Part shown: piece after piece, positions 8 to 46,962 of the stretch
Position numbering within the stretch: the first letter of the stretch is position 1
Layout of the letters: the number at the start of each line of letters is the position of its first letter
Assembly: GCA_019694135.1 (NCBI GenBank)
Contig: JAIBCM010000002.1
Span: 22,143-86,142, forward strand
DNA length: 64,000 bases
Source: Verrucomicrobiia bacterium
GTDB lineage: Bacteria; Verrucomicrobiota; Verrucomicrobiia; JADLBR01; JAIBCM01
Direction: 5' to 3'
Made by a program: the position numbers and the translations under genes
Notes under the pieces: generated by a model
Databases searched by the model: none
What the model saw: only the letters and a program-made list of their open reading frames with translations
What the model was told of the DNA's origin: nothing

Positions 8-703
8 ATGGGAAGTATTGCTGATAATATTACGCGAGTTCAGGGACAGATTAAAGAGGCAAGCGCGCGTGCGGGTCGGGGTGCAGAAGAGGTTCATTTA
101 TTGGGCGCTTCAAAAACCAGGACGCCAGAAGAAATTTATGAGGCGGTGGAAGCCGGGCTCTTATTATTTGGCGAGAATCGGGTGCAAGAAGCTAAACAGA
201 AAATTCCGTTGTGTTCATCTCGTGCGGAATGGCATTTTATTGGACATTTGCAATCAAATAAAGTGCGTGATGCTGTGGCGCTTTTTTCCTGTATTCAGTC
301 GATCGATTCGGTTTCTTTAGCAGAAACGGTTTCCCAAGAGGCAGAAAAACAAGGGCGGACAATGGATATTTTGGTGGAAGTCAACGTGTCTGGGGAGAAA
401 AGCAAGTTTGGCATGAAACCTGAAGAATTATTATTTGCTTTGGAAAAGGTAAATGTCTTACCGCGTTTGCGAATTTGTGGTTTGATGACGTTGGCACCGT
501 GGGAAGAGAAACCTCAAGAGGCGAAGCCTTATTTTGCGAGGTTGCGTGAATGGCGGGATCGTGCGGAGAAGGAGCTTGGTATTAAACTTCCCGAATTGTC
601 GATGGGTATGAGTCATGATTTTTTGGAAGCTATTCAGGAAGGCAGCACACTGGTGCGCGTTGGCACGTCAATTTTTGGTCAAAGGAAAAAAAGTAAACCG
701 TAG
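8..703 (+). CDS. yggS: PLP-binding protein, YggS/PLPBP family (alanine-racemase-fold PLP homeostasis protein)
   Basis: The translation carries the motif LLGASKTRTPEEI...FGENRVQE, which is the YggS signature with the PLP-binding Lys. Length is ~230 aa. Confidence 0.8.
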   Translation: MGSIADNITRVQGQIKEASARAGRGAEEVHLLGASKTRTPEEIYEAVEAGLLLFGENRVQEAKQKIPLCSSRAEWHFIGHLQSNKVRDAVALFSCIQSIDSVSLAETVSQEAEKQGRTMDILVEVNVSGEKSKFGMKPEELLFALEKVNVLPRLRICGLMTLAPWEEKPQEAKPYFARLREWRDRAEKELGIKLPELSMGMSHDFLEAIQEGSTLVRVGTSIFGQRKKSKP

Positions 704-795
704 AAAAAACTTTTCACAGTAAGTCTAAAAACTGGATCCTCTGGGCAATCCGTCAGTTGACGGACGAGGATGGGGTTGGGCGTTTCTTACTTTTC

Positions 796-3700
796 TTATC
801 CTTTATCTTTTTTAAAAATTTCGCCAATTAAGGTTGCGGCATCGACTCCACCAGAAAGGGATTCTTCAAAACTTCCCTCGACCATTACGGCAAAGGCATA
901 GCGTGGGTTGTCAGCAGGCAAAAAGCCAGCAAACCAAGCGATTTGGCGCGGTTTGGCTTTGCTGCCCACTTGGGCAGTGCCTGTTTTTCCTGCCACTTGT
1001 ATGCCAGAAACTTGTGCTCTTCGGCCTGTTCCTTCTTCTGTTACTGACACCATGGCTTCTTTGACAAGATCGAATTGTTCAGGAGTAAAAGATAAGGTGT
1101 TAAGAATTTCAGGAGGAAACGTTTTTACGGTTTGGCCGTTTTGATCAAAAAATTCGCTAACGATTCTGGGACGATACAAAGTGCCATGGTTGGCAATGGC
1201 TGCAACGGCATTGGCTATTTGCAAAGGGGTTGTCAGGAGATCGCCCTGACCAATCGAAACGTTGGCGACATCACCAGCGCCCATAATGCGACCATATTTT
1301 TTTCGAATGTAGTCAGGTGTTGGCATGAGACCCGCCAATTCGCCGGGTAGGGGAACGCCCGTGATTTGGCCTATGCCAAGATTAGTAGCGACGTTGATCA
1401 AAGCGGTTCGTCCGGTTCGTAAACCTAAGTCGATAAAGTAAGTATTAATGGATTGAGCAAAAGCGTTGCGAAATGAGACGGGATAAGTTTCTCGTGGTAG
1501 ATTGAATCGCACATTGCCAATTTGGTAGTAACCTTTGCAATAAACGATGCGTTCAGGATCAAAAGTGCCTGCTTGTAAAGAAGCTAACGTAGTGATGATT
1601 TTAAAGACCGAACCAGGCGGATGAAATTGTCTGATGGCTCGATTTTGTAGTGGGTTATCTTCTGCCTGCAAAAAGCTTTGCCATTTTTCTGAAGATAGAG
1701 CGGGTAAAAAGTCGTTAGGATCAAAAGTGGGTTGGCTTGCCATAGCTACGATATCGCCATTGGTTACGTTCATAATAACAACAGCACCGGCGGCAATATT
1801 TGTTAAACTTTTTTCCACGGCTTTTTGTAGTTCGAGATCGAATGTAGTTCGAATATTTAAACCTGAAGTGGCTTGTTTTTCGATAGCGGTGCGCTGCGTA
1901 AAGCCTTCGGGTGTGGTGGCGATGACAAATTTTCCTGCTTGTCCATTAAGTTCCCTATCAAAAATTTTTTCTAACCCTTCCGCGCCTTGATATTGATCGT
2001 AAATGACTAAGTTAGCTTGATAAGGGCCAATGCGTGGTGTTTGAGCGCGTTGAAGATAGCCAAGAGTGTGGGCAAGCAGTTGGTTTTCGGGATAAACTCG
2101 TTTGGGATAAGTTTGGAGGACGAAACCTTCATCTCTCAATTTACTGTTGTTGAATTGAGAAACTTTTTCGGGTGTTAAATCGCTAATGACAACAGGTTGA
2201 AATCGTTGAAAGTTATAATGGTTAGTCAATGTTTCATTGGAAAAGGTGATGGATTTTTCTAGCCAATTTGAGGCAAGCTCTAATTTGGGTTTAATCCAAG
2301 TTAAGGCTTCTTCTGCTGAGTTTGCTGTTTCTAAGCTTGGCCAGGGCAGAACGAGGCTTTGGCCCGAGAGAGTTGTGGCTAAGGGTGAACCGTTTGCCGC
2401 GACGATATCTCCCCGCAGAGGTGGCATGATATATTCTGCTACGGGAGGAATAGAAGCATGATCGTTTTCCTCGGAAGGCGCTTGAGAAATGAGTTCGGAA
2501 GGATTAGAAAAAAGTGTTTGTAACCAACGAGACCAATCCTCATTTTCTGCAACGCGATTGATGCGTGAGACAGGCAGTGTATTCATAGAGTTGAGCTGGG
2601 ATTGTTTAAGATAAACAAAGGTATCACCTGGGCTGGGAGCAAAACCAGCGAGACCTTGAACGGTTCCAGTATTTTTTTCCACTTCGACTTTGATGAGACT
2701 AGATGGAATCGCAAAATTGGTGGGAGAAGAGGGGAGTCGGTTGACTATTTTTTCCCATAATGGAATGGCTGTTTTCGAGGCCAACGTTTTATTGCCAATG
2801 GAAATGGATGGATCATAACCCACCCACACTCCGGTGACCCAGCGCGGAGTGTAGCCTAGGAACCAAGCGTCTCGCTGATTTTCAGAAAAACTGCTAACAC
2901 CCGTAGCGGGTTGGGTTAAGTCTTGTCGCCATGCTTTGTCTCGGAGAGTTTGCTCTAAAGTTAAGGTCATTTGTTGAGCAGTGAGAGCTTCTAGTTGTGG
3001 CAAACCAGCGACATGAGGTCGGCGATAAAGCAATTTATTTTTTCCGTCGCGAATGGATCGAATAAAGAAAGCTTTTTTCTGGGTGCCTTGGTTAGCCAGA
3101 ATCTGGTAGAGCGAGGTGATCTCCCAAAGAGTTAAAGGTCTAAAATCGTGAAAGGTTTTTGGAAGAAAATTTTCGTCAAACCTAATACCAGTATTTTTTA
3201 GCCACTGCGCTAGATTAGCTAGTCCGATTTGGTGAGCGGTTCGAATGGCCGCGGTTTTATAATTTCCAGCCAAAGCATCTTGCAAAAGAAAAAAGCGTCT
3301 GTTGAGATTTTGTTCTGGATTGCCAAAAGTTATGGCTTGGGATGTTTTGATTTCGGGTTTGTCGATAAAGGAGCTGTCAATGAGAGAAGCTGGGTGCCAA
3401 CCTAGATTTTGCATGGCTAAAGCATATAAAAAAGGGTAGAGTGAAGCGCCATTGTCTCGTTGCGCCATGGTGATGCGATCAAATTGGCTTTGGGTAAAAT
3501 CTCTTCCTCCCACGTATGCTTGAACGGCGCCTTCAACAGCGTCCAAAATTAAAACGGCCGCTTGTAAAGGGCCTGGATTTTCAATAGTTTTGCGTAGGTT
3601 TTTTTCCTGGGTTAATTCCCATTCAACCTGGGTCAGAGTTTCTGAAACTGCCCGCTCTGCTGCTTGTTGTAAAGTTGTGTTGAGCGTAGTATACACCCGG

Positions 3701-4557
3701 AGGCCTTGAGGAAATTCATTTTCTTCGAGTTGTAAAACTTCCTGCAACTCTTGCATGATGAGAGGGGTGAAATATTTGTTTAATCCTACTGAAGTTTCTG
3801 GAACGAGACGAATTCGTTTTTGTCGCGCTTGCCAGGCTTGTTGTGATGTGATGAATTTTTCTTCCACCATGGTTTGTAAAACACGATCTCTTCCCTGAAG
3901 CGCTTTTTGATAGTCGCGTCTCGGTGAGGCGCTATTAGGAGAACGAATTAACCCGGCGAGCATGGCGCATTCCCCGAGGGTGAGTTGTTTAGCTGATTTA
4001 CCGAAATAGCCGCGCGCTGCGGCTTCTAAACCAAAATAGCCTTTGCCGAAATAGATTCGGTTGATGTAATAATCTAAGATCTCCTGTTTGGTAAAATGAT
4101 TTTCAATACGAAGCGCTAAAAAAGTTTCTATTAATTTACGATCCCAAGAGCGTTCAAACATGCCGATAGCATTTTTGGCGAGCTGCTGGGTAATGGTGCT
4201 TCCACCTTGAGTAAATTGGCCTGATTTTAAGTTAACTACGAGAGCCCGAACAATTCCGATGATATCAATGCCGTAATGCCAATAAAAACGACGATCTTCT
4301 GCGGCAATAATAGCTTGGCGCATGAGGTCTGGAATTTCATTATGTTTTAATACGATGCGATTTTCTAATGCAAGTCGTCCGATTTCCTTATCATTATCAT
4401 CATAAAAAATGCTCGTTTCATTGTATTTTGCGAGATCGTTCAGATCGTATTGTTGTGCAAGTTGATAGTGCGTTTTAACTTTGGGATAAAGCAGCCAAGT
4501 CGCTAATGTGATCAAGAGCAGAAAAAAAACTAAGCTTAACGTAAGAAATCGTTTCAT
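796..4557 (-). CDS. Multimodular penicillin-binding protein: GT51 transglycosylase, degenerate class-A transpeptidase, class-B (PBP2-like) dimerisation and transpeptidase module
   Basis: GT51 motifs EDRRFYWHYG and GGSTITQQ are present. The class-A TP region has ASLY in place of SxxK and lacks KTG. The C-terminal module has PBP2-like motifs QPTFDPN, PGSVFK and AGKTGTAQ. I place the start at MKRFLTLSL (ATG at 4555-4557), which overlaps the upstream stop by ATGA. A TM helix follows that start. Confidence 0.85.
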   Translation of the reverse strand: MKRFLTLSLVFFLLLITLATWLLYPKVKTHYQLAQQYDLNDLAKYNETSIFYDDNDKEIGRLALENRIVLKHNEIPDLMRQAIIAAEDRRFYWHYGIDIIGIVRALVVNLKSGQFTQGGSTITQQLAKNAIGMFERSWDRKLIETFLALRIENHFTKQEILDYYINRIYFGKGYFGLEAAARGYFGKSAKQLTLGECAMLAGLIRSPNSASPRRDYQKALQGRDRVLQTMVEEKFITSQQAWQARQKRIRLVPETSVGLNKYFTPLIMQELQEVLQLEENEFPQGLRVYTTLNTTLQQAAERAVSETLTQVEWELTQEKNLRKTIENPGPLQAAVLILDAVEGAVQAYVGGRDFTQSQFDRITMAQRDNGASLYPFLYALAMQNLGWHPASLIDSSFIDKPEIKTSQAITFGNPEQNLNRRFFLLQDALAGNYKTAAIRTAHQIGLANLAQWLKNTGIRFDENFLPKTFHDFRPLTLWEITSLYQILANQGTQKKAFFIRSIRDGKNKLLYRRPHVAGLPQLEALTAQQMTLTLEQTLRDKAWRQDLTQPATGVSSFSENQRDAWFLGYTPRWVTGVWVGYDPSISIGNKTLASKTAIPLWEKIVNRLPSSPTNFAIPSSLIKVEVEKNTGTVQGLAGFAPSPGDTFVYLKQSQLNSMNTLPVSRINRVAENEDWSRWLQTLFSNPSELISQAPSEENDHASIPPVAEYIMPPLRGDIVAANGSPLATTLSGQSLVLPWPSLETANSAEEALTWIKPKLELASNWLEKSITFSNETLTNHYNFQRFQPVVISDLTPEKVSQFNNSKLRDEGFVLQTYPKRVYPENQLLAHTLGYLQRAQTPRIGPYQANLVIYDQYQGAEGLEKIFDRELNGQAGKFVIATTPEGFTQRTAIEKQATSGLNIRTTFDLELQKAVEKSLTNIAAGAVVIMNVTNGDIVAMASQPTFDPNDFLPALSSEKWQSFLQAEDNPLQNRAIRQFHPPGSVFKIITTLASLQAGTFDPERIVYCKGYYQIGNVRFNLPRETYPVSFRNAFAQSINTYFIDLGLRTGRTALINVATNLGIGQITGVPLPGELAGLMPTPDYIRKKYGRIMGAGDVANVSIGQGDLLTTPLQIANAVAAIANHGTLYRPRIVSEFFDQNGQTVKTFPPEILNTLSFTPEQFDLVKEAMVSVTEEGTGRRAQVSGIQVAGKTGTAQVGSKAKPRQIAWFAGFLPADNPRYAFAVMVEGSFEESLSGGVDAATLIGEIFKKDKG

Positions 4558-6620
4558 TGCGTAGCTTCTTCCAATGTTCCCTCGGAAATTTCTTCTGTAG
4601 CCGGCAAAGGTTGTTCCTGTGGAGGTGAAGAAGATTCTTGAGAATAAATGGTGGCTTGAGGAATATAACCCAGTTGTTGGCTTAATGAACCCAACCAGTA
4701 GCATCGCCAAAATTGGCGCAAAGCTTCCATGCGGTCTTGGTCGTCAGGACTCATTTTTAGCACAGTGGCATATTCGTAGATCATGGCTAAAGGGGAGGTG
4801 TCGATATCGACATTTTGTGCTGCAGCCATTCCTTGACGTGCTGTGATTTCAGCGTTTTGTAACATTTTTTCTAGAGCGAGGCGGTTGCTTAAAGACCATT
4901 TTAAAGAATCTAATTTGAGTGAAGCGTTCCAATAAAAATATTTTTCCTTTAAAAGATCGGTTTCTAAAAAATAATTAATATCAAGAAAACATTGGGCGAC
5001 ATCATTGAAAGCAAATGAGGCGGCAGAAGTGGGCTGAGGTTGGGGTGGGCGATAGGCAGGGCCGGGAGTAAAACCGGCGTTCGCCAGAAGTGCACGTGGA
5101 ATTTGATGCGTTTCCCATTTTTTTTCCCAACTACGCTTGATGCGTTGTAGTAAGGTAGTTTGGCTTGCCAAACGAGTGTCCCAAATTAGTGAAGATTGCC
5201 ATTGGCTAGCGCGCTGTTTGATTTGGCCAGTAAAAGATTCACCTTTAGCTAGGAGCGCAGGTGTCAATTGATTGAGCCAATCGGTGGCGCGATGAGAAAA
5301 AGCGGAGGAGTCCGATTTTTTAAAGTTACGCTGGAAAACGGGAAAAATATCTCGGAGTTGGGTCTGATAGGTCACATAATAAAAACCGCTCATGAGCAAA
5401 ATAGCTGCTCGTTTTTTTTCATCTTCGGTTGCATCTGATTGCGAATGCCACGCTTGTCGGGCAATGGCAAGAGGACCCTCCAGTTTGGTTTGAAGAGTGA
5501 GCAACCAGTCATTGCGTTCTGACAAAAATAGACTGAGGCTCAAGTCGTTTTTATCCCATTCTTTATCTTGAGTTTTTTGAATGACGTCATCGAGTAGGCT
5601 TGAGGTTTGAGTGACAAAAGATTTTAATTGAGCTGAGTTTAAGTTAGTTTTGAAAGCTTGAGTGGCGGCGATTTCGCTTGAGGCGTCAATAAGGAGACGA
5701 TAAGCCGCGTAAACTTGGCCAGCTTGGTAAGCTTGCGAGCCTTGTTCAAAGAGCGACAAAGCGCGTTGCCAGATGGCTTGTTCCCAAGGAGAAAGTTGCT
5801 GTAGGGCTTGTGTAGAAGGCCAGAGATTTTTCGTGCGCAACAGTTCGTTAATTTGATTTTGGCAACGTTGCGCTAAAAAACTGAATGTGCTGTTGGAATA
5901 ACGACAGGGTGTGGTATTCCAAGTTGCTGAAGGCAGGCTGTGATCCAATGCTATTTCGGCAGCTTCAGCTAAGTTTTGGGCATAAAAAACTTTTAATTTT
6001 AATGTCTTGGCTTTCGCGGCGGTATCTAAAAGTTTATTGGGATGAGTGCGATCCAAGTGTTGATTGTCAGATAAAATTATTTTTTTTATACCGGTGTTGA
6101 CAGCCAGTTCCATGCGTGATTCAACATTTTGAACAGGACCGAGCGATTGATCGGGTAGTAGAGTAGCGAGAAGTAATGTGTCTTGAGGATAGTCGATGCC
6201 GCAAGCGGTAGCGAGTAAACCGAGCGATAGCGAAGCGCAGCTTTCTGAATCGATGGCACCGCTAAGTTCGCTCAAAACCCAATCAGCATTTTGCCAGGGT
6301 TGTTGCCACAATATTGCACTGGCCAGGGTGGCGGGCCAAAGTTGTTGGGATAACGATTGTGTGGTTTCAGGTGACATAGCACCGTCAAACCGAAAGTTAA
6401 TGGTTTCTGAAGTGGTTTCGATTTGGGGATTCCATTGAATATTAAGTTGGGAGAGTGTGATGTTTGAGTTTTTATCCAAAACGAAAAGAGGAATTTTTTG
6501 TTCAAATAATTCTTCTGTTTTTTTAAATAAAGGGAGCGATGCCCCGTGGGCAGGGAAAATAAAAACAAGAAATAGTCCTAACCATTGGCAGGTTCGTTGA
6601 TAAGAAAAATAATTACACAT
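4554..6620 (-). CDS. Secreted protein with N-terminal Lon-protease (S16)-like domain and long helical C-terminal region
   Basis: Signal-peptide-like N-terminus MCNYFSYQRTCQWLGLFLVFIFPAHGA. The segment DSESCASLSLGLLATACGI...LGPVQNVESRMELAVNTGIKKIIL aligns to the Lon block DGPSAGIAM...[24 protein letters not shown]. The catalytic Lys position reads as Glu. Confidence 0.6.
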   Translation of the reverse strand: MCNYFSYQRTCQWLGLFLVFIFPAHGASLPLFKKTEELFEQKIPLFVLDKNSNITLSQLNIQWNPQIETTSETINFRFDGAMSPETTQSLSQQLWPATLASAILWQQPWQNADWVLSELSGAIDSESCASLSLGLLATACGIDYPQDTLLLATLLPDQSLGPVQNVESRMELAVNTGIKKIILSDNQHLDRTHPNKLLDTAAKAKTLKLKVFYAQNLAEAAEIALDHSLPSATWNTTPCRYSNSTFSFLAQRCQNQINELLRTKNLWPSTQALQQLSPWEQAIWQRALSLFEQGSQAYQAGQVYAAYRLLIDASSEIAATQAFKTNLNSAQLKSFVTQTSSLLDDVIQKTQDKEWDKNDLSLSLFLSERNDWLLTLQTKLEGPLAIARQAWHSQSDATEDEKKRAAILLMSGFYYVTYQTQLRDIFPVFQRNFKKSDSSAFSHRATDWLNQLTPALLAKGESFTGQIKQRASQWQSSLIWDTRLASQTTLLQRIKRSWEKKWETHQIPRALLANAGFTPGPAYRPPQPQPTSAASFAFNDVAQCFLDINYFLETDLLKEKYFYWNASLKLDSLKWSLSNRLALEKMLQNAEITARQGMAAAQNVDIDTSPLAMIYEYATVLKMSPDDQDRMEALRQFWRCYWLGSLSQQLGYIPQATIYSQESSSPPQEQPLPATEEISEGTLEEATQ

Positions 6621-6691
6621 GGAATGATCATTCATTAAGCGATCTGGCGACAAAATCAATGAACAACCCTAATGGGGAGAGAATTAATGAG

Positions 6692-7789
6692 TTAATTCTC
6701 AGTTCTTGTCGTGAGTTTTTTGGCGTCAACGACTAGAAAACGGCCACGATTTTTTCTCGCTAATCCTTCTAAAAATTCTTTTTCATTGGGTTTTTCTGCC
6801 GCTGTGAGGAAATAGATGGCATGTAGTCGCACAGGTTCGGTCAAAGTTTTTTGTAAATCTGCTGTTTGTTTCCAAATTTCTTCAGCAGGAATTTTTCCGC
6901 CTTGAGTTTTATTAGCGTCTCCGTCGGAAATCAGATAAATAATGTCGGGTTGCATGGCGAAAGCTTGTTCAATAGCCAGATCGGTGCGTGTGCCGCCCAT
7001 GCCATCTTCTAAAAGATCCCCACCTATGACGCGCTGTTGTTTGCGGACGCTGGTTTGCGGATCTTCAGAGATGCCTTGAATCCATTTTTTGGCTTCCGCT
7101 TTATTTTGATCGGTAGAGGGAACCAGTTGCGATTTAAAGGCGAGGGAGCCTCCTTCCCAAATAATAAGGCCAAATTGTGTGTTAATACTTAGGCCATCTA
7201 TGAGTTTCATGGCTTCTTGTTTAATCATGTAGTAAGGCATTTTGATCATGTTTCCGTTAAGACTTCGTTCGAACATGGTGTTGGAAGCGTCAACAGCGAT
7301 AACAATTTTAGCGCCGGTGTCTTTGATGCCGAAAAAGCCGACCGAAGAACCATTCCCTACGCCTGTTAAGCCGGCTTTTCCGCCAAAGGAACTGGAACCG
7401 GATAAGGATAAAACGCCATCGGAGATAACGGCGGATGCATTGAGCGGTAAGGATTGGTCGAGAGGAAGTTTAGGCAATGGAGGTAATCCTTTATCCATCA
7501 TGCGTGTACTCGTAAGAGGACTGCTAAAGGCTGGAGTAGAAGCAGCTTCTTCAAAGGCAGCTAGAGCCATTTTTTGTTCACGTTCGGGGGAGGTAATTTT
7601 AAATTTTTTTGGTTCAGCAACAAAAGTAGCAGGCGGAGCGATGAGATATTTGGCCACAATGACGGCACCGGCGATGATACCTGCTAAAATATGAGCGCCC
7701 AGGCTAATCAAAAGGATAGTGATAAGCATTTTTCGGCGTTTATTTTTTTCGCCTACGCCTTCTTTAAGCTGATCTATGCTGATATCCAT
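6692..7789 (-). CDS. Membrane-anchored von Willebrand factor A (VWA, MIDAS) domain protein with TonB-like N-terminal TM helix and Pro-rich linker
   Basis: Start placed at MDISIDQLKEG to avoid overlap with exbD. One TM helix (LITILLISLGAHILAGIIAGAVIV) is followed by a Pro-rich spacer. The VWA domain carries the MIDAS motifs VDASNT, GGTRTDLAIEQA and IYLISDGDAN. Confidence 0.7.
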   Translation of the reverse strand: MDISIDQLKEGVGEKNKRRKMLITILLISLGAHILAGIIAGAVIVAKYLIAPPATFVAEPKKFKITSPEREQKMALAAFEEAASTPAFSSPLTSTRMMDKGLPPLPKLPLDQSLPLNASAVISDGVLSLSGSSSFGGKAGLTGVGNGSSVGFFGIKDTGAKIVIAVDASNTMFERSLNGNMIKMPYYMIKQEAMKLIDGLSINTQFGLIIWEGGSLAFKSQLVPSTDQNKAEAKKWIQGISEDPQTSVRKQQRVIGGDLLEDGMGGTRTDLAIEQAFAMQPDIIYLISDGDANKTQGGKIPAEEIWKQTADLQKTLTEPVRLHAIYFLTAAEKPNEKEFLEGLARKNRGRFLVVDAKKLTTRTEN

Positions 7790-7802
7790 AATTTCGTAAA
7801 GG

Positions 7803-8258
7803 TTATAGGTCAAAATCGTCTTCGGGATCGGAAGCAAATGTGACGCCTTTGATACCTGCCAGGGCACAAGTGTTCATAACATCGATGATGCGTTGATGCA
7901 CCACGCCATCTTCGGGAAAAAGAGTAACTAAAGCTTCGGCTTGGTTAGCATCGCTAGCTTCTTTATAGCGTTTTAAGGTTTCAAGCAATTGAGGCAATTG
8001 TGAGTCGGTGGGACTATCTAAAGTTTGTTCGTTGAGTACGACTTGGCCATTGGCGCGAATTTCGATGCGTTGTTCATCGGGCAGATCGACTGATTCTTCT
8101 TGTGACACGGAGCCGGGAAGTTTGGTGCTGACATCGGCTTCGGGTTTTACGGGTTTGGAAGTCAGAATGTAGAAGAAGAGTAGCAAGAAACATACGTCGA
8201 TCATGGGTGCGATTTGAAGTTCGACTTGAGGATGTTCAGTTTTTTTAGGGGTTGCCAT
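7803..8258 (-). CDS. exbD: ExbD/TolR family biopolymer transport protein
   Basis: N-terminal LQIAPMIDVCFLLLFFYI is the ExbD/TolR TM signature. Length is ~150 aa. Confidence 0.8.
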   Translation of the reverse strand: MATPKKTEHPQVELQIAPMIDVCFLLLFFYILTSKPVKPEADVSTKLPGSVSQEESVDLPDEQRIEIRANGQVVLNEQTLDSPTDSQLPQLLETLKRYKEASDANQAEALVTLFPEDGVVHQRIIDVMNTCALAGIKGVTFASDPEDDFDL

Positions 8259-8264
8259 AATCTT

Positions 8265-8693
8265 TTAATGTTGAGTAGTTCCAAAGATGACTTGAATGGC
8301 TCCGGCTTCTGCAGCGGCTTTCATGACATCTTTGATTTGTTTCGCAGGGGTTTTTGCGTCGGCTCGCACGTAAATGATAAGAGGTGGAACATCGGTAAGG
8401 CGTTGTTTCAGATAGGCTTTTAATTCGCGCATATCCATTTGGCGTTCGCTAGCGAAGTATTGGCCTTTTTCATCGATATTGACTACATCTCGTCCACTTA
8501 AATCTTCCGGCACGACTGAGGACTGGGCGCGAGGCAAGTTAATATTCATGAGTTTCTGGCTTTTAGTTAGTTTGCCAGAGAGCATGAAGAAAAAGAGCAA
8601 GAGCATGGTGACGTCGATCATGGGCGCAATTTGAAGCCCCACTTCTTCGTGAGTCACTTTTCGCGGACGTTTGCGCTGGATTTGCTCTGCCAT
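8265..8693 (-). CDS. exbD: ExbD/TolR family biopolymer transport protein (second copy)
   Basis: The motif LQIAPMIDVTMLLLFFFM is present. The gene is a paralogue of the adjacent exbD. Confidence 0.8.
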   Translation of the reverse strand: MAEQIQRKRPRKVTHEEVGLQIAPMIDVTMLLLFFFMLSGKLTKSQKLMNINLPRAQSSVVPEDLSGRDVVNIDEKGQYFASERQMDMRELKAYLKQRLTDVPPLIIYVRADAKTPAKQIKDVMKAAAEAGAIQVIFGTTQH

Positions 8694-8747
8694 AATTTAA
8701 TTTTATTAACTACTACTCTATTTAGACGTCATCAGGTTGTATTTCAT

Positions 8748-9557
8748 TTAAGATTGGAAATCAGGCCCTACGGGTAAGGTGCTGCCATCATTTTCTCCTG
8801 CTGCAACGGCCGCAGCGGCTAACCCTTCCATGGTGACTTCACCTGTGAATAGATCAAGCATGGTGGAAACGGCTTTATGCACGTCGACCATTAAGGCTTG
8901 AGCTTTGCCGCGGAAGAAGAAGTAAAGGAACATGGAGGGAATCGCGAGCATCAAACCGCCGGCGGTTGCTACGAGCGCTTCACCAATACCGCCCGCCAGA
9001 TCGGTGGCTTCGGCTTTACCGGCAGTCAACGCGCTAAAGGAGTTAATCATACCGCTTACCGTTCCTAACAACCCGATCATGGGCGCCATGACGGCGAGGG
9101 TGTTGAGGTAAGTGATGAGCACTTGCACTTTGGTTTCTTCATGGTAGACGGCATCAGCCACAGCGTTTTCCATGGCAGCTTTGTTAAACATATCTCTTTC
9201 AAAGTTTGCCTTGGTTAAAGCAGAGGTCAGCGTGTGGGCTAATGGCCCGGGATTTTCTTTGCAAATTTGAAAGGCGTTGGGGATGTTGCGTTGGCTCATG
9301 GTTAAGTTTAGTTGGTGGATAACGCTGTCTGGCAGGATTTTTTTTCTGCGTAATTGTAATCCTAAAAATCCGCCTAAAGCTACGCAACCGACTGAGCAAA
9401 GAGCGATGATGTGCATGATGGGACCTCCTTCATGGTAGAGGTCGAGCAAGCTTTTGCTGGATTCAACCTTAGGCGCGGCCCAGGTCGATTGCAAACCGAA
9501 TGTGAGCCATGTCACAAGGATAAGACCGATGTAGTAAAGAGGTTTTAATGTTTTCAT
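8748..9557 (-). CDS. exbB: MotA/TolQ/ExbB proton-channel family protein
   Basis: Signal-like N-terminus followed by three TM helices. The C-terminal block GLLGTVSGMINSF...AGGIGEALVATAGGLMLAIP is typical of ExbB/TolQ. Confidence 0.8.
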   Translation of the reverse strand: MKTLKPLYYIGLILVTWLTFGLQSTWAAPKVESSKSLLDLYHEGGPIMHIIALCSVGCVALGGFLGLQLRRKKILPDSVIHQLNLTMSQRNIPNAFQICKENPGPLAHTLTSALTKANFERDMFNKAAMENAVADAVYHEETKVQVLITYLNTLAVMAPMIGLLGTVSGMINSFSALTAGKAEATDLAGGIGEALVATAGGLMLAIPSMFLYFFFRGKAQALMVDVHKAVSTMLDLFTGEVTMEGLAAAAVAAGENDGSTLPVGPDFQS

Positions 9558-9562
9558 AGAGG

Positions 9563-10447
9563 TTATTGGGTTGTGGTTTCTTTTTCTTCGTTTTGTTCTT
9601 CTTCTTTCTCTTCAGTTTTTACTAAAGGTTTTAATTCTTTTAGCTTGGTTTGAGCACGTGCAAAGATGGAACTTTGCGGGTAATCGGCAATGATATCTTG
9701 CAACACTCTAACGGCTGCTGAAAGATTGGTTTCTGCCAGATAAACGCGCGATGCGCCCCATAAGCCGCGACCCACTTCTTCCTTGAGAGTTGGGTTGAAT
9801 ACGCGGTTATAGAGAAAATGATCCAAAGCAGCGGGATAATTTGTGCGTCCAAGCTCAACTTCGCCCAGTACTAATTGCACGAAGGCGACGATGGAAGAGT
9901 CTTTGGATTGCTCTTCCATTTGTTTGGCCATGACCATGGCTTCTTCGAAACGATTCAGGCCGGCCAAACATTTCACCTTTAATGGAGCGACAAGAAACTT
10001 TCTTTTTTGATTCCAGTCTTGAGCTTCGATTTGTTCCACAGCTTTGAGCGCTTCGTCGAATTGTTTTAGGTCGATCAGTGTTTCAGCGCGGGCAAATAAC
10101 ACCTCACCAGCAGGAGATTCTGGAATGGAAAGAAACGATTGCCAAAATTTCCAAAGCGGGTCGAGAGTTGTTAAGCGCGCGGCTGGATCAGTAGGCAGTT
10201 TGGATCGATCGAAAGTGGCTTCAAAAACGATTTTTTCGATTTGATCTAAATTGTAAGCGCTTTCGGCTTTGCCGCCTCGAAATTCAACTTGAATATAAAC
10301 TTTATTTTTTTCGGAGCGTAAAACTTTGCCTTCAATTTCATCTAAAGTTTTTAAAACTACGAGATCTTGTGCATGAATAGAGGTTAAACCCGCAATAGCC
10401 ATGAGGCCTAACACAAAACTGAGCTGAAAAAAATTCTGTGTTTTCAT
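9563..10447 (-). CDS. Secreted TPR-repeat protein
   Basis: Signal peptide followed by helical TPR-like repeats. The gene overlaps the upstream TPR gene by 4 nt. Confidence 0.6.
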   Translation of the reverse strand: MKTQNFFQLSFVLGLMAIAGLTSIHAQDLVVLKTLDEIEGKVLRSEKNKVYIQVEFRGGKAESAYNLDQIEKIVFEATFDRSKLPTDPAARLTTLDPLWKFWQSFLSIPESPAGEVLFARAETLIDLKQFDEALKAVEQIEAQDWNQKRKFLVAPLKVKCLAGLNRFEEAMVMAKQMEEQSKDSSIVAFVQLVLGEVELGRTNYPAALDHFLYNRVFNPTLKEEVGRGLWGASRVYLAETNLSAAVRVLQDIIADYPQSSIFARAQTKLKELKPLVKTEEKEEEQNEEKETTTQ

Positions 10448-13242
10448 GAGGAGGTTGGCTTGGGTTCCGAAGCCGGGTTGACATTGGCGCCTGGTTTTAA
10501 TTCGGCGAGTCTTTGTTGAGCAGCTTTATATTCTTCAAAACTTGCCAGATCTGCTTCTTTTAAGAAAGCTTCGTAAGTTTCAATCGCTTGAGGTTTTAAT
10601 TGTAAGGTTTCGAGCGCTTTGCCGCGGGCTAAATAAGCTTTTGATACCCAGTCGCGGTAGCGAGCATAGAGAATGTAAATGCGTTCGTAATAAGCGCAGG
10701 CTTCTTTCGTTTTACCCATTTGCTCGTTGAGTTGGCCCAGTTGATAAAGCGCTTGCACCCAGGGCTTGCCCTTGGCAGCAGGAGTTTCCAATATTTTTTC
10801 CAAGGTTGCAATAGCTTCTGGAATGCGTTTTTGGTTTTTGTAAATTTCTACTTTGGATTCTAAGATTTTTGGTAGAAGGATGGAGGAGCCGGATTCAGCT
10901 TCAAAGCGATCAAACATAGCAAGCGCTTTAGTTTCATCTCCTTTTGCTAAGGCAATGAGGCCTAAGCCCGCTAGAGCACGATCGGTGAAACGAGTTTTTT
11001 TAGGAGTGTTGGCCAAGATATTCAAATAAGTTTCAGCTTCGGCATAGCGCTTTTCAGTGACTAACAGTTCTCCCAAGTCAATGCAGAGCCGTTGGGAAAG
11101 TTGTTCCGGTTTGAAGCGATCAGGACGGGCTAATTCTAAAAGCGCAAGACGGGCTTGATCCGGGTTGGAGCGACGTTGGAGTTGAGCAAGAAGCCAGAGA
11201 TAACGCGCAGCTTGTATGGGTTTGCCAGCAGCAAGTAAGTTGTCCTTACCCTTTTCTAGCTCGCTGATCAGAGCTGCTTTATCGTCGACAGTGGGGAAAA
11301 GTTTGGCGTAGCCGATGAAAAGGTCTTCAACAAAATTGCTCTTCAGATCAGAGCCGTATTTTTCCAGGGCAAGTCGGTAAAAACGGCGCGCATCTTCAAT
11401 TTGATCGAGTTGGCGCAAACCCCAACCGGTCCAGTGATAGGCTTCGACAACGCGACCACTATTCGGGTTTTTGTCGATAAATTTTTTGAAATGATCGACC
11501 ATTTTTTCGTATTGTTCAGTAAGTCGAAGCGCTTTGCCAATTTGGAATTGTGCATATTCATAGAGTCGTTCGTTGGCTGGGCCGACTTCGCTAAACATTT
11601 TGATGCCTTCATCGGGATCGCCTTCAGCGAACCAAGCGTCACCAGCTAGGGCGCGCACTTCATCGGTGAGCGGGTTTTGAGGATAGGTTTTTACCCAGTC
11701 CACAAGTTTTTTGCGTGCTTCTTCATATTTTTTTTCGCCATAATCAGCGGCTGCCATGCGATAGATGGCTTCTTCTTTGAAGGTGCCTTGGGGATATTCT
11801 TTGAGATAAAGGTTGAATCGCGTGCGAATTTCAGGGTAGTTTTTTGCAAAAACGGCAGTCATGGCATTCCAATAGAGATTATTTTCTGCCAAGGGACTTT
11901 TAGGAAATTGTTGTCGGAAACGAGCAAAGGAATCGGTGGCTTCTTGATATTTTTCCAGAAAAAGCGCGCTGTAACCGGCCAAAAATAAAACGCGATCGGC
12001 TTGAGGAAATTGAGGATAAAGTTTGGTGTGTTTAGTAAAAACGTTATAGGCATCTTCAAAGCGGTTATTATTAAGATAAGCTTCGCCCTCGAGATAGGCG
12101 GCTTGAGGTGCGCGTGAGTCGTTGGGATAGCGTTTGATGAAAGAGGCGACGAGTTCTTGAACTTTGTCCCAACGTTGTAATTCCACAGCAGCTAGGATGG
12201 CGAGGTAATGACCGACTATGACCGGTTCGGTTCGGGGCTGGGTTTCGGCTACGGCTATAGCAGCGAGATAGCCTTCTCCAGGGCGTTCGCATTGCAGGGC
12301 GCATTGTGCGACACGTAAGTGACGGTTGAGATCGAAAGTTTCCATTTTGGTAAGATTTTCTTTCTCACGAATCAGGCCGTCTTTCATTTGTTGGAGTTGG
12401 AGCGCTTTAATGCTGAGCCCTTGAGCGTAACGGGTAAGTTGTTTTTCTACGTCAGTCAGTAGTTTTTCTTGTCTGTCCAAAATTTGAGCTTTGAGCGGGA
12501 TGAAAAGGTAGCAGCGATAGGCTTTGTTGTATTCTCCATCTTCATAAAAATCGTCGCCTAATTGCATGGCCTGCAGAGCAAGAAGAGCTTGCTGACGAAT
12601 GGGTTCGGGTTTGGCGCGCAAAATTTCTAGCACAGCCAGTGCGCCATCAAGATCACGGCTTTCGAGCAAGCTTTGCAAGCGCATGAGCATGGCGCGTTCA
12701 GCGGTTAAAGGGTCGCGCGTTTTACTGGCAATTTCAAAAAGTGCAGCAGCTTCTTTATATTTTTTTTCTTGGAATTGCGAGTTAGCCATTAACATTTGCG
12801 CTTCGGAAGTTTGCGGCGTGTTAGGATAGTTTTTTAAAAAAGTTTCAAAGGCGCTGATGGCTTCGCTGAATTTTCCTTGTTGATAGCGGGATAATCCTAG
12901 CCAGAAAGACATATCCGGCACGGCCTTGCCTTGTGGATATTCTTTAATATAGGTTTCAATGATGGGCTCGGCCGCTTCGGGTTTTTGTATTTGCAAATAA
13001 GACGCTGCGAGGAGAGGGTAAACTTCGGGTTTTACTTTTTGCGCTTCAGGACTGGAGCCATAGGAGGTTAAAAAATTTTCGTAAATTTTAGCCGCTTCTG
13101 GAAAATTTCCAGCATTAAAAGCGCTTGAGCCACGCTGTAAGAGATCATCCGCTGTGCCAGTGCCAGCTTGGTCTTGTGCGTTCGCCAGAGAGGAAATTAT
13201 CCCTAACGCTACCATCATTACGAAACGCCGAATGCACTTCAC
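10444..13242 (-). CDS. Large secreted tetratricopeptide-repeat protein (932 aa)
   Basis: Signal peptide MKCIRRFVMMVALGIISSLANAQ is followed by many W-LG-Y-A-F-P TPR-type repeats along the whole length. Confidence 0.7.
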   Translation of the reverse strand: MKCIRRFVMMVALGIISSLANAQDQAGTGTADDLLQRGSSAFNAGNFPEAAKIYENFLTSYGSSPEAQKVKPEVYPLLAASYLQIQKPEAAEPIIETYIKEYPQGKAVPDMSFWLGLSRYQQGKFSEAISAFETFLKNYPNTPQTSEAQMLMANSQFQEKKYKEAAALFEIASKTRDPLTAERAMLMRLQSLLESRDLDGALAVLEILRAKPEPIRQQALLALQAMQLGDDFYEDGEYNKAYRCYLFIPLKAQILDRQEKLLTDVEKQLTRYAQGLSIKALQLQQMKDGLIREKENLTKMETFDLNRHLRVAQCALQCERPGEGYLAAIAVAETQPRTEPVIVGHYLAILAAVELQRWDKVQELVASFIKRYPNDSRAPQAAYLEGEAYLNNNRFEDAYNVFTKHTKLYPQFPQADRVLFLAGYSALFLEKYQEATDSFARFRQQFPKSPLAENNLYWNAMTAVFAKNYPEIRTRFNLYLKEYPQGTFKEEAIYRMAAADYGEKKYEEARKKLVDWVKTYPQNPLTDEVRALAGDAWFAEGDPDEGIKMFSEVGPANERLYEYAQFQIGKALRLTEQYEKMVDHFKKFIDKNPNSGRVVEAYHWTGWGLRQLDQIEDARRFYRLALEKYGSDLKSNFVEDLFIGYAKLFPTVDDKAALISELEKGKDNLLAAGKPIQAARYLWLLAQLQRRSNPDQARLALLELARPDRFKPEQLSQRLCIDLGELLVTEKRYAEAETYLNILANTPKKTRFTDRALAGLGLIALAKGDETKALAMFDRFEAESGSSILLPKILESKVEIYKNQKRIPEAIATLEKILETPAAKGKPWVQALYQLGQLNEQMGKTKEACAYYERIYILYARYRDWVSKAYLARGKALETLQLKPQAIETYEAFLKEADLASFEEYKAAQQRLAELKPGANVNPASEPKPTSS

Positions 13243-33396: not shown

Positions 33397-35370
33397 ATGC
33401 CAGCATCACTCACATCGGTTTCAGGGAAAAGTTCTAGTAGAATTGAGACGGTGAATTTTGATTTGGAATCGCGAGTCAATGCGGCGATTCATGCGTCTCA
33501 AAATCATCTGCTTTCTTTACAACATCCTGATGGTTATTGGGTGGGAGAGTTAACCGTCGACACCACTTTGATTTCGGATCTGGTGCTTTTTATGCATTGG
33601 CGGGGTAAGGTGGATTTTGCGAAGCAAGCGAAATGCGTGAAGCATTTGTTAGATCGTCAGTTGCCAGATGGTGGTTGGAATATTTATGTGAATGGCCCCA
33701 GTGAGGTTAATGCCAGTGTTAAAGCTTACTTTGCTTTAAAATTAGCCGGTTTATCGCCTCAAGAGCCTGCGATGAAAAAAGCGCATGCCAATATTTTGCG
33801 TTTGGGAGGAATTCCTAAAATGAACACTTACGCGAAATTAAATTTAGCGTTGGTGGGACAATTTTCTTGGAAATATCTTCCGATTATTCCTGTTGAGATT
33901 ATTTTGCTTCCCAAATGGTTATATTTTAATATTTACGAAATGTCTTCTTGGAGTCGGGCTATGCTTTGTCCGCTCGCTATTATTAACCATTTTCGACCCA
34001 CACGTCCACTTCCGCCGGAAAAACAGTTGCATGAACTCTTTCCTTACGGAACGGAGCATAACGATTTTTCGTTAAAGTATGATTCAAAGTTTTTTACTTG
34101 GCGCAATTTTTTCCTGCGTTGGAACGATTTTTTAAATTTTGTGGATGGTTTGCCTTATAAACCTTTTCGTTCTGTAGCATTGAAGAAAGCTGAACAATGG
34201 TTGTTGGCGCGAATTAGTGAAGGCAGCGATGGGTTGGGGGCGATTTATCCTGGTATTTTTAATGCCATTGTTGCTTTGGAATGTCTCGGTTACTCCGATG
34301 AACACCCCATCATGCAAAAGCAGTTAAAACATTTTGAAGAATTGGAAGTTGACGATATTGTAAATAACGATTTTCGTGTGCAGCCCTGCTTATCTCCTGT
34401 ATGGGACACCGCTATTACTTCAGTGGCATTGGCTGAATCGGAAGTGCCCGCTGATCATCCTGCACTGCAAAAAGCGGCCGATTGGTTGTTGAGCAAAGAA
34501 GTGCATTTTCGAGGTGATTGGCAATACAAAAATCCTTACCCTGTTGCTTCGGGATGGGCATTTGAGTTTAATAATGAATATTATCCCGATGTGGATGATA
34601 CTTTGAAAGTGCTTTTGGCGCTTCGCTTAGTACAAACTTCGAACGAATCTAGTAAACAAGAAGTCATAGAGCGGGCTTTAGGTTGGGTATTAAGTTTTCA
34701 ATGTAAAGATGGGGGTTGGGCAGCTTTTGACAAGGATGTGACGAAACATTGGCTGGAAGATGTGCCTTTTGCGGATCATAATGCTATTTTGGATCCTACT
34801 TGTAGCGATATCACAGCGCGCTGTTTGGAGTTGCTCGGCAAGTTGGGTTATCGCAATAACACGCGTTTTATTAAACGCGCTCTTGCCATGCTTCAAAAGA
34901 CTCAGGAATCGGACGGTTCCTGGTTTGGTCGCTGGGGCGTGAATTATATTTATGGAACGTGGCAAGTGTTGCGAGGGGTAAGTGCTTTAAACGAAAATAT
35001 GAATGAAGATTGGATTGTGCGTGGCCGCGACTGGTTAGAATCGTGTCAAAATTACGATGGAGGTTGGGGCGAAACGTGCGCGTCTTATGATGATTCCGCT
35101 TTAAAAGGAAAAGGTCCCAGCACAGCTTCTCAAACAGCTTGGGCGCTAATGGGTATCATTGCTTGCGGCGATCCTCATCGAATTAGCATTCAAAAAGGGG
35201 TGGATTATTTATTGCGCACACAAAATTCCAATGGGAGCTGGACAGAAGAAGAGACCACGGGAACGGGTTTTCCTAAGGTGTTTTATTTGCGTTATGATAT
35301 GTATCGCAATAACTGGCCTTTACTTGCTTTAGCGGAGTATAAGAAGTTGCGTGCCCAATTTCCTGCATAA
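33397..35370 (+). CDS. shc: Squalene-hopene cyclase
   Basis: The DVDDT active-site motif (YYPDVDDTLKVL) and multiple QW repeats (G/W-rich) are present. Length is 657 aa. Confidence 0.9.
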   Translation: MPASLTSVSGKSSSRIETVNFDLESRVNAAIHASQNHLLSLQHPDGYWVGELTVDTTLISDLVLFMHWRGKVDFAKQAKCVKHLLDRQLPDGGWNIYVNGPSEVNASVKAYFALKLAGLSPQEPAMKKAHANILRLGGIPKMNTYAKLNLALVGQFSWKYLPIIPVEIILLPKWLYFNIYEMSSWSRAMLCPLAIINHFRPTRPLPPEKQLHELFPYGTEHNDFSLKYDSKFFTWRNFFLRWNDFLNFVDGLPYKPFRSVALKKAEQWLLARISEGSDGLGAIYPGIFNAIVALECLGYSDEHPIMQKQLKHFEELEVDDIVNNDFRVQPCLSPVWDTAITSVALAESEVPADHPALQKAADWLLSKEVHFRGDWQYKNPYPVASGWAFEFNNEYYPDVDDTLKVLLALRLVQTSNESSKQEVIERALGWVLSFQCKDGGWAAFDKDVTKHWLEDVPFADHNAILDPTCSDITARCLELLGKLGYRNNTRFIKRALAMLQKTQESDGSWFGRWGVNYIYGTWQVLRGVSALNENMNEDWIVRGRDWLESCQNYDGGWGETCASYDDSALKGKGPSTASQTAWALMGIIACGDPHRISIQKGVDYLLRTQNSNGSWTEEETTGTGFPKVFYLRYDMYRNNWPLLALAEYKKLRAQFPA

Positions 35371-36063
35371 ATGGCGACACCTGTCTCTTTAGCTGTTTTT
35401 TTTGCTGTGCCTCATGAAGCTGCGTTATTGAAAAAAAAACTGAAATTTCGATGGCAAAAAAAAGGCGTTGGCTTGTTTTTTGCTGAAACTCGGGTGAGGG
35501 ATAAAACCATTCTTTTCGCTTGTTTAGGAATGGGCAAAGAAGCAGTGAAGAAAAATTTAACATTTCTTTTAGATTATTTTACTTTTTCTCAAGCGATTTT
35601 AGCGGGTTACGCTGGAGCGCTCGATCCCAAACTCGAAAAAGGAGATATTGTCATTTCTGATAAGCGATACTTGGATTTATTGCCTGATTTAAAATTAGGA
35701 AAAATTATTTCTGTTGATACAGTAGCAGCTACTGCCGAAGAAAAATATGCGCTATTTCAAAAAACTGGCGCTTCTGTTTGCGATATGGAGTATGAAGCAG
35801 CTTTGGTGATTTGTCAGAAACACAACCTTACTTTGTATTCGATTCGAGCTGTGAGCGACACGGCTCACGAGAATTTACCTTCAGGCGCGCTAGCAAGCGC
35901 TTTTGATTTAAAAAGGCAACGATCAACTCCTTTAAAGATTTTTTGCTATGGGATAAGACATCCTCGGAATATGATTTCTTTTTTTAAATTTGTTCATGGA
36001 CTGGCAAAATCTCAAAGAGCTTTAACACAAATCTTGATTCAAATATTAAAAAATCAATCTTAG
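35371..36063 (+). CDS. hpnG: Hopanoid-associated nucleoside phosphorylase (PNP/MTAN family, HpnG-like)
   Basis: The protein has the PNP_UDP_1 fold with GMGKEA and CDMEYEAA...IRAVSD motifs. The gene sits immediately 3' of shc. Confidence 0.6.
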   Translation: MATPVSLAVFFAVPHEAALLKKKLKFRWQKKGVGLFFAETRVRDKTILFACLGMGKEAVKKNLTFLLDYFTFSQAILAGYAGALDPKLEKGDIVISDKRYLDLLPDLKLGKIISVDTVAATAEEKYALFQKTGASVCDMEYEAALVICQKHNLTLYSIRAVSDTAHENLPSGALASAFDLKRQRSTPLKIFCYGIRHPRNMISFFKFVHGLAKSQRALTQILIQILKNQS

Positions 36064-42483: not shown

Positions 42484-43521
42484 ATGTTAAGAAAGTTGCT
42501 TGGATTTTTTTCCAGCGATATTGGTATTGATTTAGGAACAGCCAATACGCTGGTTTTTGTTAAGGATCGCGGTGTTGTGTTGCGAGAACCTTCGGTTGTG
42601 GCCGTGCAATCTGGCACGCGCAAGGTAGTAGCAGTGGGCGATGAAGCGAAGCGCATGTTGGGCAGAACGCCTGGAAATATTACTGCGGTGCGGCCTTTGA
42701 AAGATGGGGTGATTGCGGATTTTGATATTACGGAAGCGATGTTGCGTCATTTTATTAAGAAGGTGCATCATGGTAGTAAGTTGGTGAGTCCGATGGTTGT
42801 GATTGCAATTCCTTCAGGCATTACGGAAGTTGAAAAGCGTGCGGTTCGCGAGTCGGCTTTGCATGCGGGTGCGCGGGAGGTTTATTTGATTGAGGAGCCG
42901 ATGGCGGCGGCGTTGGGTGTGGGATTGCCGGTGCAAGAAGCGGCGGGAAATATGATTGTGGATATTGGTGGTGGGACGACGGAAATTGCGATTATTTCTT
43001 TAGGTGGCATTGTTTATTGTCGCAGTGTACGAGTGGCAGGCGATGAGTTGGATGAGAGTATTAGCATTTATTTAAAGCGTGCGTATAATTTAATGATTGG
43101 TGAAAGAACTGCGGAAGATATTAAAATAAAAATCGGTTCGGTGCATGTGATGGATAAAGAGATGACGATGGAAGTGAAGGGACGCGATTTGGTGGCGGGT
43201 TTGCCGAAGACGTTGACGATCACTTCTCAAGAAGTGCGGGAGGCATTGTTGGGGCCGGTGCAAACGATTTTAGAAGCGATTCGTATTACGTTGGAACGTT
43301 GTCCTCCAGAGTTATCGGCAGATTTGATTGATCGTGGTATTGTTTTGGCGGGTGGCGGTGCGCTGTTGCGAGGTATGGATCGTTTGATTTCTGAAGAGAC
43401 AGCATTGCCTGTGTATGTAGCGGAGGATCCCTTGAGTGCGGTGGTGGAAGGCACAGGTAAAGTGTTGCAAGAATTTAAATTTTTAAAGAAAGTGGCTTCT
43501 TACGAAGGGAAAGCCAGTTAA
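42484..43521 (+). CDS. mreB: Rod shape-determining protein MreB
   Basis: Actin-fold motifs DLGTANTLV and GGGTTEIA. Confidence 0.9.
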
Positions 43522-43623
43522 TAAAGCGGTGAGGCGAAAGAATAAAAAATATATTTTTACTCTAAAATTGGCTGAATGGCTGCGGAAGACAGCGCGTTTT
43601 TAATAGGAAGGCGTTGTGCGATC

Positions 43624-44442: not shown

Positions 44443-44445
44443 ATT

Positions 44446-46958: not shown

Positions 46959-46962
46959 TGTT

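Follow-up and report, generated by a model that had tools for sequence, protein, structure and literature searches.

The stretch of DNA analysed here, referred to as the window, comprises 64,000 nucleotides (nt) from a Verrucomicrobiia bacterium (NCBI GenBank assembly GCA_019694135.1, contig JAIBCM010000002.1, positions 22,143 to 86,142 of the forward strand). Its minus strand carries an open reading frame (ORF) at 796-4557 that encodes a penicillin-binding protein (PBP) of 1253 amino acids (aa), running from an ATG at 4557 to a stop codon at 796-798. The longest form of the ORF, 796-4710, begins at a TTG, and we judged the ATG at 4557 to be the biologically sensible start. An identical protein with the same start is deposited at NCBI as MBX7157263.1, 'transglycosylase domain-containing protein' (Verrucomicrobiae bacterium). 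The protein combines a GT51 glycosyltransferase (GT), a class-A transpeptidase (TP) fold that has lost its catalytic motifs, and a tethered class-B module of the PBP2 type with its motifs in place, and its features are arranged as follows:

796..4557, minus strand: whole gene, trimodular penicillin-binding protein, 1253 aa (ORF; identity to MBX7157263.1; at least 120 full-length homologues)
4489..4545, minus strand: N-terminal membrane anchor, aa 5-23, LTLSLVFFLLLITLATWLL (Kyte-Doolittle scan)
3868..4386, minus strand: GT51 glycosyltransferase, aa 58-230 (Pfam Transgly 1.1e-61)
4270-4299, 4183-4206 and 4126-4140, minus strand: GT51 motifs EDRRFYWHYG, GGSTITQQ and RKLIE, intact
3586..3837, minus strand: class-A GT-to-TP linker domain, aa 241-324 (TIGR02074 match 67-607, PBP1a alignments, folded in the AlphaFold2 model)
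2698..3585, minus strand: dead class-A TP fold, aa 325-620 (alignment to 4oon, 5u2g and 3udf)
3436-3447, 3256-3264 and 2890-2898, minus strand: remnants of the middle-domain motifs, SxxK to ASLY, SxN to NYK and KTG to VSS (placed by alignment)
2575..2697, minus strand: beta-rich C-terminal extension of the class-A body, aa 621-661 (pairwise identity 0.62; beta strands at model residues 568-598, at high model confidence)
2458..2574, minus strand: flexible tether from the class-A body to the class-B module, aa 662-700 (low model confidence; lowest conservation)
1843..2439, minus strand: class-B pedestal (PBP_dimer), aa 707-905, without a transmembrane helix of its own (Pfam PBP_dimer 8e-22; TIGR03423; Foldseek)
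811..1842, minus strand: live class-B (PBP2-type) TP, aa 906-1249 (Pfam Transpeptidase 224 bits)
1600-1611, 1444-1452 and 979-987, minus strand: class-B live motifs SVFK, SIN and KTG (coordinates verified)

A Pfam scan of the protein returned Transgly at aa 58-230, PBP_dimer at aa 712-885 and Transpeptidase in two stretches, the best at aa 924-1237; only the C-terminal of these two stretches keeps SxxK, SxN and KTG, as a first-pass annotation of the gene had anticipated. Among the NCBIfam models, PBP_1a_fam (TIGR02074) matched aa 67-607 with 515.8 bits, above its cutoff of 508.75, and pbp2_mrdA (TIGR03423) matched aa 707-1249. The latter match begins at profile position 42, which indicates that the class-B module lacks the transmembrane helix. 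A Kyte-Doolittle scan of the whole protein found no hydrophobic segment above 1.6 besides the N-terminal one (aa 1-27), and both GC content and GC skew were even along the gene, with no break at the module junction. Judged by these profile and motif tests, the protein is a full member of neither the class-A nor the class-B PBPs, because it passes the PBP1A cutoff and has an N-terminal anchor followed by a GT51 with the catalytic Glu residues, but the TP fold that comes after the GT and linker is without SxxK, SxN and KTG. Its class-B half, in turn, has the pedestal and the SxxK-, SxN- and KTG-bearing TP of PBP2 (MrdA), but falls under the TIGR03423 equivalog cutoff and lacks both a transmembrane helix before the pedestal and the pairing with rodA and mreBCD.

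For the motif register of the middle domain, aa 1-686 were aligned to the solved PBP1a structures 4oon, 5u2g and 3udf. The alignment placed GASLY of the query on GSSFK, NYK on SRN and VSS on KTG, so that no retained Ser-Lys had been mis-registered when the sequence was first read by eye. The Pfam Transpeptidase model scored 22.6 bits on the middle domain alone (cutoff 22.1), compared with 224 bits on the C-terminal domain. Motif states across the family were read from a MAFFT alignment of the query and 119 full-length homologues (n=120). The position of the former catalytic Ser held Ala in 103/120 members and Ser in 14/120, the Lys position of SxxK held Gln in 108/120, and the Lys position of KTG held Met in 114/120, with Lys at neither position in any member (0/120 each). 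Because no nucleophile is conserved, acyl-enzyme chemistry in the middle domain can be excluded. The replacement motifs GALLQP, GNK and GMPGYSEG are themselves kept, and a live middle domain was found neither in the 120 family members nor among the fused matches of a search against 1.84 billion representatives. Mean pairwise identity was 0.55 for the dead TP, 0.59 for the live TP and 0.54 for the pedestal, with the segment joining the two halves least conserved at 0.44. The dead domain thus matches the live ones in conservation and is, by this measure, a maintained pseudoenzyme that is kept under purifying selection and does not decay.

The predicted live sites were close to invariant in the same alignment: GT51 residues E87, D88 and E144 were present in 120/120 members, as were S983, K986, S1036 and K1191 of the class-B module, while N1038 was present in 119/120. 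The intact GT51, the class-A TP without any of its three motifs and the appended class-B module with a live motif set, all described in the first-pass annotation, thus stand, and every motif string that it quoted was located in the sequence at verified coordinates. Some details had to be corrected. The SxN of the middle domain is indeed lost, but the register reads NYK rather than GNY, a one-residue shift. The class-B module is complete, but starts at about aa 707 (nt ~2439) instead of nt ~2130 and spans ~547 aa with the whole pedestal instead of ~450. Its SxN is S1036-I-N1038 in AQSINTY and not SIGQGD. The module had also been called closely similar to the MrdA encoded in the window, yet the two share only 34% identity, as expected of a diverged paralogue, and a recent duplication of the window's mrdA as the source of the module was rejected on this ground. 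The true mrdA is a separate, rodA-linked gene at 44967-46958 within a canonical mreB-mreC-mreD-mrdA-rodA cluster at 42484-48078 on the plus strand, which is followed by an RNase E/G gene (whole span 42484-49659, plus strand). Since mrdA lies within this cluster elsewhere in the window, the fused module is an extra paralogue and the genome also has a normal Rod system. Apart from mrdA and the fusion gene, no further PBP-type genes were found in the 64-kb window.

An AlphaFold2 model of aa 54-1253, built with an 85-sequence alignment, reached a mean predicted local distance difference test score (pLDDT) of 86.4 and a predicted template modelling score (pTM) of 0.54. The sole segment with a pLDDT below 50 comprised model residues 609-647 (protein residues 662-700), and the region around this tether is 50 to 64 residues long across the family. 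The model folds both halves with confidence, the class-A body (dead TP fold included) as well as the class-B module, and predicts a flexible tether of ~40 residues between them. The best PDB matches returned by Foldseek were whole PBP2 ectodomains, those of C. jejuni (8yjx), E. coli (6g9f), Y. pestis (6tii) and H. pylori (5lp5, in complex with MreC), with a target TM score of ~0.8 over ~560 columns.

The gene is not confined to this genome. Among 5.8 billion proteins searched, at least 120 cluster representatives (1243-1538 aa) match the query over 97-100% of its length, with 42-81% identity; they derive from independent contigs in NCBI, JGI, ENA and Logan assemblies. All of these homologues carry Transgly, PBP_dimer and Transpeptidase, and those with a named source all belong to the Verrucomicrobiota (Verrucomicrobiia, Methylacidiphilales). 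A scan of a genome collection with the dead-domain profile (A1) matched 32 genome loci; the scan used two narrow peptide patterns, so that the taxonomic range is a lower bound. These loci lie in Verrucomicrobiota metagenome-assembled genomes (MAGs) and in the cultured isolate 'Verrucomicrobia bacterium LW23', save for three bins, one unclassified and two 'BOG_genome_mining' bins that are labelled Bacteroidetes and Betaproteobacteria and are probably mis-binned. In more than 20 loci, the isolate included, the gene is an uninterrupted ORF of 1274-1426 aa. The sequences thus identify the fusion PBPs as a genuine, conserved, Verrucomicrobiota-specific gene family.

Further observations concern individual loci. 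The fusion gene is broken up in two long-read 'MFD' MAGs, where it occurs as 2-4 overlapping ORFs (L009, 4819-9037; L032, 4738-8745), probably through indel errors and not as a true pseudogene. Several Verrucomicrobiota carry two paralogous fusion genes per genome (L004/L019, L005/L020, L007/L022). The isolate LW23 has two contigs whose loci (L027/L028) show identical ORF layouts and match statistics, which suggests a large duplication or assembly redundancy.

The dead-domain profile was also run against all 1.84 billion 50%-identity representatives, and the motif columns were read for the 150 matches listed. The scores of about a dozen family representatives lay at 248-486 bits, above a plateau of ordinary class-A PBPs at ~180-220 bits. 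Among these 150 matches, the proteins with dead motifs were all at least 1282 aa long or fragments, whereas the class-A PBPs of 650-900 aa all had SxxK, SxN and KTG. The divergent members P0132, P0136, P0140 and P0128 also had the full fused architecture. Two proteins of ~930 aa, P0125 and P0127, were considered as non-fused dead-domain proteins and rejected, as both end inside PBP_dimer and are truncated fragments. No intermediate, whether a live class-A TP with an appended module or a dead TP without one, was present among the matches listed. Thus, TP death strictly co-occurs with the fusion. Separately, five non-fused class-A PBPs of ordinary length (P0137, P0146, P0205, P0217, P0244) had an SxxK of the form G(S/T)AFTPF, in which Lys is replaced by Thr and sometimes Ser by Thr, together with a KTG box of the form KTGT(A/H/S)Y; in these proteins the class-A TP site may have changed independently and in a different manner.

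Directly upstream of the fusion gene, on the same strand, lies a gene for a secreted partner protein, and beyond it a string of further genes:

4554..6659, minus strand: partner gene, 701-aa secreted protein with a Lon-like domain at ~aa 100-240, then a long helical region and a Pro-rich tail (ATGA overlap, synteny)
6692-13242, minus strand: tightly packed same-strand gene string upstream of the partner, encoding TPR (932 aa), TPR (294 aa), ExbB/TolQ, two ExbD/TolR and a 391-aa protein
8748-9557, minus strand: ExbB/TolQ
8265-8693 and 7803-8258, minus strand: ExbD/TolR, two copies

The stop codon of the partner and the start codon of the PBP gene overlap in caATGAaac (ATGA), and the PBP gene is translationally coupled to the partner ORF. 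The partner has a signal sequence, is identical to 'hypothetical protein K1X66_02595', has no family name and, taken alone, gave no Pfam match. In 10 loci (L010, L018, L019, L020, L022, L023, L024, L025 and L027/L028, the last two being the near-identical LW23 loci) the fusion PBP is directly preceded by a homologue of the partner with 27-33% identity, whereas the other loci lack this linkage; in genomes with two fusion genes, one copy is partner-linked and the other is not. In a midpoint-rooted neighbour-joining tree the linked copies branch deeply, and those without the partner fall into two derived clades. Because of this deep branching, the tree loosely suggests that the linkage is ancestral.

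A profile built from 12 partner homologues (A2) matched archaeal Lon proteolytic domains (A. fulgidus 1z0b, E=1.2e-4; 1xhk, 1e-3) as well as BrxL, and 8/12 members had Pfam ChlI or Lon_C matches. A Lon P-domain fold is thus likely present in the partner. The positions of the Lon Ser-Lys dyad hold Glu or variable residues and Arg, His or Cys, respectively, so that the catalytic dyad is absent and the Lon-like domain looks like a pseudoenzyme. The helical region carries an invariant RQFWRC-type motif, and the Pro-rich tail is variable. A protein search with the A2 profile yielded nothing beyond the same four close proteins, and a structure model from a 4-sequence alignment reached a pLDDT of 37 and a pTM of 0.24. 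The partner may be an accessory or regulatory factor of the fusion PBP.

The TPR-TPR-ExbB-ExbD-ExbD-391 aa string was considered as part of the same system and rejected, since its linkage is not conserved in related loci. Its 391-aa protein has no Pfam match and, by eye, a vWA/MIDAS-like DxSxT motif. Counts of promoter and terminator matches within 600-7000 were no better than those in shuffled sequences and gave no informative site. Elsewhere, the window holds hopanoid-type genes at 33397-38258, namely a squalene-hopene cyclase at 33397-35370 (plus strand) and a 732-aa fusion of squalene/phytoene synthase and flavin amine oxidase at 36060-38258 (minus strand).

The analysis shows how the fusion PBPs are built, which motifs they keep, how conserved and how widespread they are and what surrounds their genes; from these findings we infer a catalytic division of labour, a role for the dead domain and a role for the partner. 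We regard it as probable, at roughly 80%, that the protein is a trimodular peptidoglycan synthase in which a GT51, a class-A pseudo-TP and a tethered live class-B TP divide the work. The single N-terminal helix would fix the protein in the cytoplasmic membrane, where the GT51 would polymerise lipid II into glycan strands. The dead class-A TP fold would most likely have a structural part, as scaffold or spacer, and might also offer a surface for docking or regulation, while the disordered tether of ~40 residues would bear a PBP2-type ectodomain without a membrane helix, and the tethered TP would make 4-3 cross-links on the strands that come from the GT51. The fusion most likely arose when an mrdA paralogue lacking its transmembrane helix joined the 3' end of a PBP1A-type gene, after which the redundant class-A active site would have decayed. 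The secreted partner of the window's subfamily, with its pseudo-Lon and helical regions, is a candidate regulator. That transpeptidation was outsourced to the fused class-B domain, as the first-pass annotation put it, appears to be the best functional reading.

Several points weigh against this division of labour. Conserved motifs denote potential activity, and do not place both live domains at work on one strand. The pTM of 0.54 and the disordered tether leave the placement of the GT51 relative to the live TP unpredicted, so that geometric feasibility is assumed. The pbp2_mrdA score of 444.4 is slightly under the curated cutoff of 455. Our survey of PBPs covers the 64-kb window, and the fusion may or may not be the sole class-A-type synthase of the genomes that carry it. 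The partner's role is proposed from synteny, and the linkage is missing in two derived clades.

That the gene is an assembly or sequencing chimera, with a class-A and a class-B PBP gene wrongly joined, might be entertained for a sequence drawn from a MAG, the more so as the broken ORFs at L009 and L032 show that assembly errors occur in the family. However, homologues down to 42% identity stand on independent contigs from independent projects and assemblers, uninterrupted ORFs recur in over 20 loci that include a cultured isolate, GC content and skew are even, and a module only 34% identical to the resident mrdA is no mis-joined copy of it, so that the join raised as a caveat at first reading is extremely improbable. 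The C-terminal module could alternatively be a DD-carboxypeptidase, an endopeptidase or a sensor, the whole then functioning as a monofunctional glycosyltransferase to which a trimming or regulatory part is appended. The motifs by themselves leave the reaction undecided, as SxxK, SxN and KTG are common to transpeptidases and DD-peptidases (PMC4632607). The module nevertheless has a high-molecular-weight class-B fold with a pedestal, a TIGR03423 score of 444 bits and the structural likeness to PBP2 given above, and is without a match to the low-molecular-weight DD-peptidase families. High-molecular-weight class-B PBPs with a pedestal are transpeptidases, and we consider a DD-peptidase or sensor very unlikely here.

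Instead of serving the GT51 on its own chain, the module might chiefly partner a SEDS polymerase (RodA or FtsW) or a different synthase, in which case the fusion would link the class-A machinery to that of SEDS or do no more than localise the module. The module is of the PBP2 type with a complete pedestal, the part that contacts SEDS proteins and MreC in canonical systems; the long flexible tether could reach a neighbouring complex, and an mreBCD-mrdA-rodA cluster is present in the same genome. But class-B PBPs pair with their SEDS partners via the transmembrane helix, as in the RodA-PBP2 and FtsW-FtsI structures, and the module lacks this helix; RodA already has its own adjacent MrdA, and a family-wide loss of the class-A TP that is strictly tied to the fusion is simplest if the appended TP took over. 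Such a SEDS-directed role is therefore distinctly unlikely. A more open matter is whether the middle domain is retained for a ligand-binding or non-canonical catalytic function, for instance the binding of stem peptides or of a regulator in the old cleft. The conserved GALLQP, GNK and GMPGYSEG motifs with their near-fixed Gln and Met are consistent with such a function, as is an evolutionary rate as slow as that of the live TP, and a co-translated secreted partner could dock there. However, no nucleophile is conserved, many of the conserved residues are generic structural ones of class-A TP folds, and the conservation may reflect only folding or packing against the GT51 and linker. We hold this function to be possible, with an appreciable but minor chance. 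Doubtful, finally, is an extension of the trimodular synthase in which the fusion PBP and its pseudo-Lon partner would form a self-contained, SEDS-independent peptidoglycan machine, with the two pseudoenzyme modules as substrate- or envelope-sensing switches that gate the GT51 and the class-B TP.

The first-pass annotation had called the architecture unfamiliar, consistent with full-text literature searches, in which we found no published description of a fused class-A/class-B architecture. The architecture is undescribed, ancient and lineage-wide, although the sequences are already public under generic names, and its chemistry is not new. Database labels for the fusion proteins are inconsistent ('penicillin-binding protein 2', 'penicillin-binding protein 1A', 'transglycosylase domain-containing protein'), and such variable naming by annotation pipelines calls for caution. 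One gene in the gene table of PMC4803751 might be a member of the family. An older survey found GT51 genes to be rare and sporadic in the Planctomycetes-Verrucomicrobia-Chlamydiae (PVC) superphylum (PMC3541169). The partner family is flagged here as a candidate PBP regulator in the Verrucomicrobiota, a phylum in which wall synthesis has received little study; if the machine with the pseudo-Lon partner were real, it would regulate class-A PBPs by a logic with no relation to the Lpo and CpoB systems of Proteobacteria. Class-A and class-B PBPs are normally separate proteins, and their cooperation is debated (E. coli PBP1A-PBP2 and PBP1B-PBP3; PBP2-PBP2a of methicillin-resistant Staphylococcus aureus, MRSA). 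A natural, ancient covalent fusion that lost the class-A cross-linking site in evolution and retained its fold would provide genetic evidence that a PBP2-type TP can be all that a GT51 polymerase needs for cross-linking. As a single-chain system, it would suit in vitro study of GT-TP coupling, of the dependence on tether length and of pseudo-TP function, and this 1253-aa 'double-TP' protein is predicted to have a single beta-lactam target site, S983.

Among known systems, the PBP1A family (TIGR02074; PBP1a of P. aeruginosa, H. influenzae and A. baumannii, 4oon, 5u2g and 3udf) shares the order of anchor, GT51, linker and TP fold with the fusion, which differs in lacking all three TP motifs and in carrying ~590 aa of tether and class-B module at its C-terminus; live class-A PBPs of ordinary length among the top 150 representatives never share its dead motifs. 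PBP1C/PbpC-type proteins resemble the fusion in having a class-A scaffold, a non-standard TP and a C-terminal appendage, but their models matched only partially (NF051885, 405.7 versus a cutoff of 900; TIGR02073, 298.6 versus 494.2), and the appendage of the fusion is a full class-B PBP and not the PbpC C-terminal domain. With PBP2/MrdA (TIGR03423; 6g9f, 8yjx, 6tii, 5lp5) the C-terminal 547 aa share the pedestal and TP ectodomain, whereas the fused module lacks the transmembrane helix and an adjacent rodA and is joined to a class-A PBP. The SEDS-class-B pairs (RodA-PBP2, FtsW-FtsI) likewise combine a glycan polymerase with a class-B pedestal and TP enzyme, but the polymerase of the fusion is a GT51, and the pairing is by a covalent tether instead of transmembrane-helix and pedestal contacts.

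The closest functional parallels are partnerships between separate proteins. In E. coli, the TP of PBP2 uses pentapeptides of nascent strands made by the GT of PBP1A, and PBP2 stimulates this GT about fivefold (PMC4632607). These are two membrane-anchored proteins with a live PBP1A TP, whereas the fusion is one chain with one anchor and a dead class-A TP. In MRSA, an inactive PBP2 TP leaves PBP2a dependent on PBP2 for transglycosylase activity (PMC7617827). Under beta-lactams this pair resembles the fusion, as a TP-inactive class-A PBP provides the GT and a class-B PBP the TP; however, inactivation in MRSA is chemical and reversible and the proteins stay separate, whereas in the fusion it is genetic, ancient, family-wide and accompanied by covalent joining. 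Both precedents make cooperation between the GT51 and the tethered TP plausible, and the fusion can be read as a covalent 'Rosetta-stone' version of the PBP1A-PBP2 and PBP2-PBP2a partnerships.

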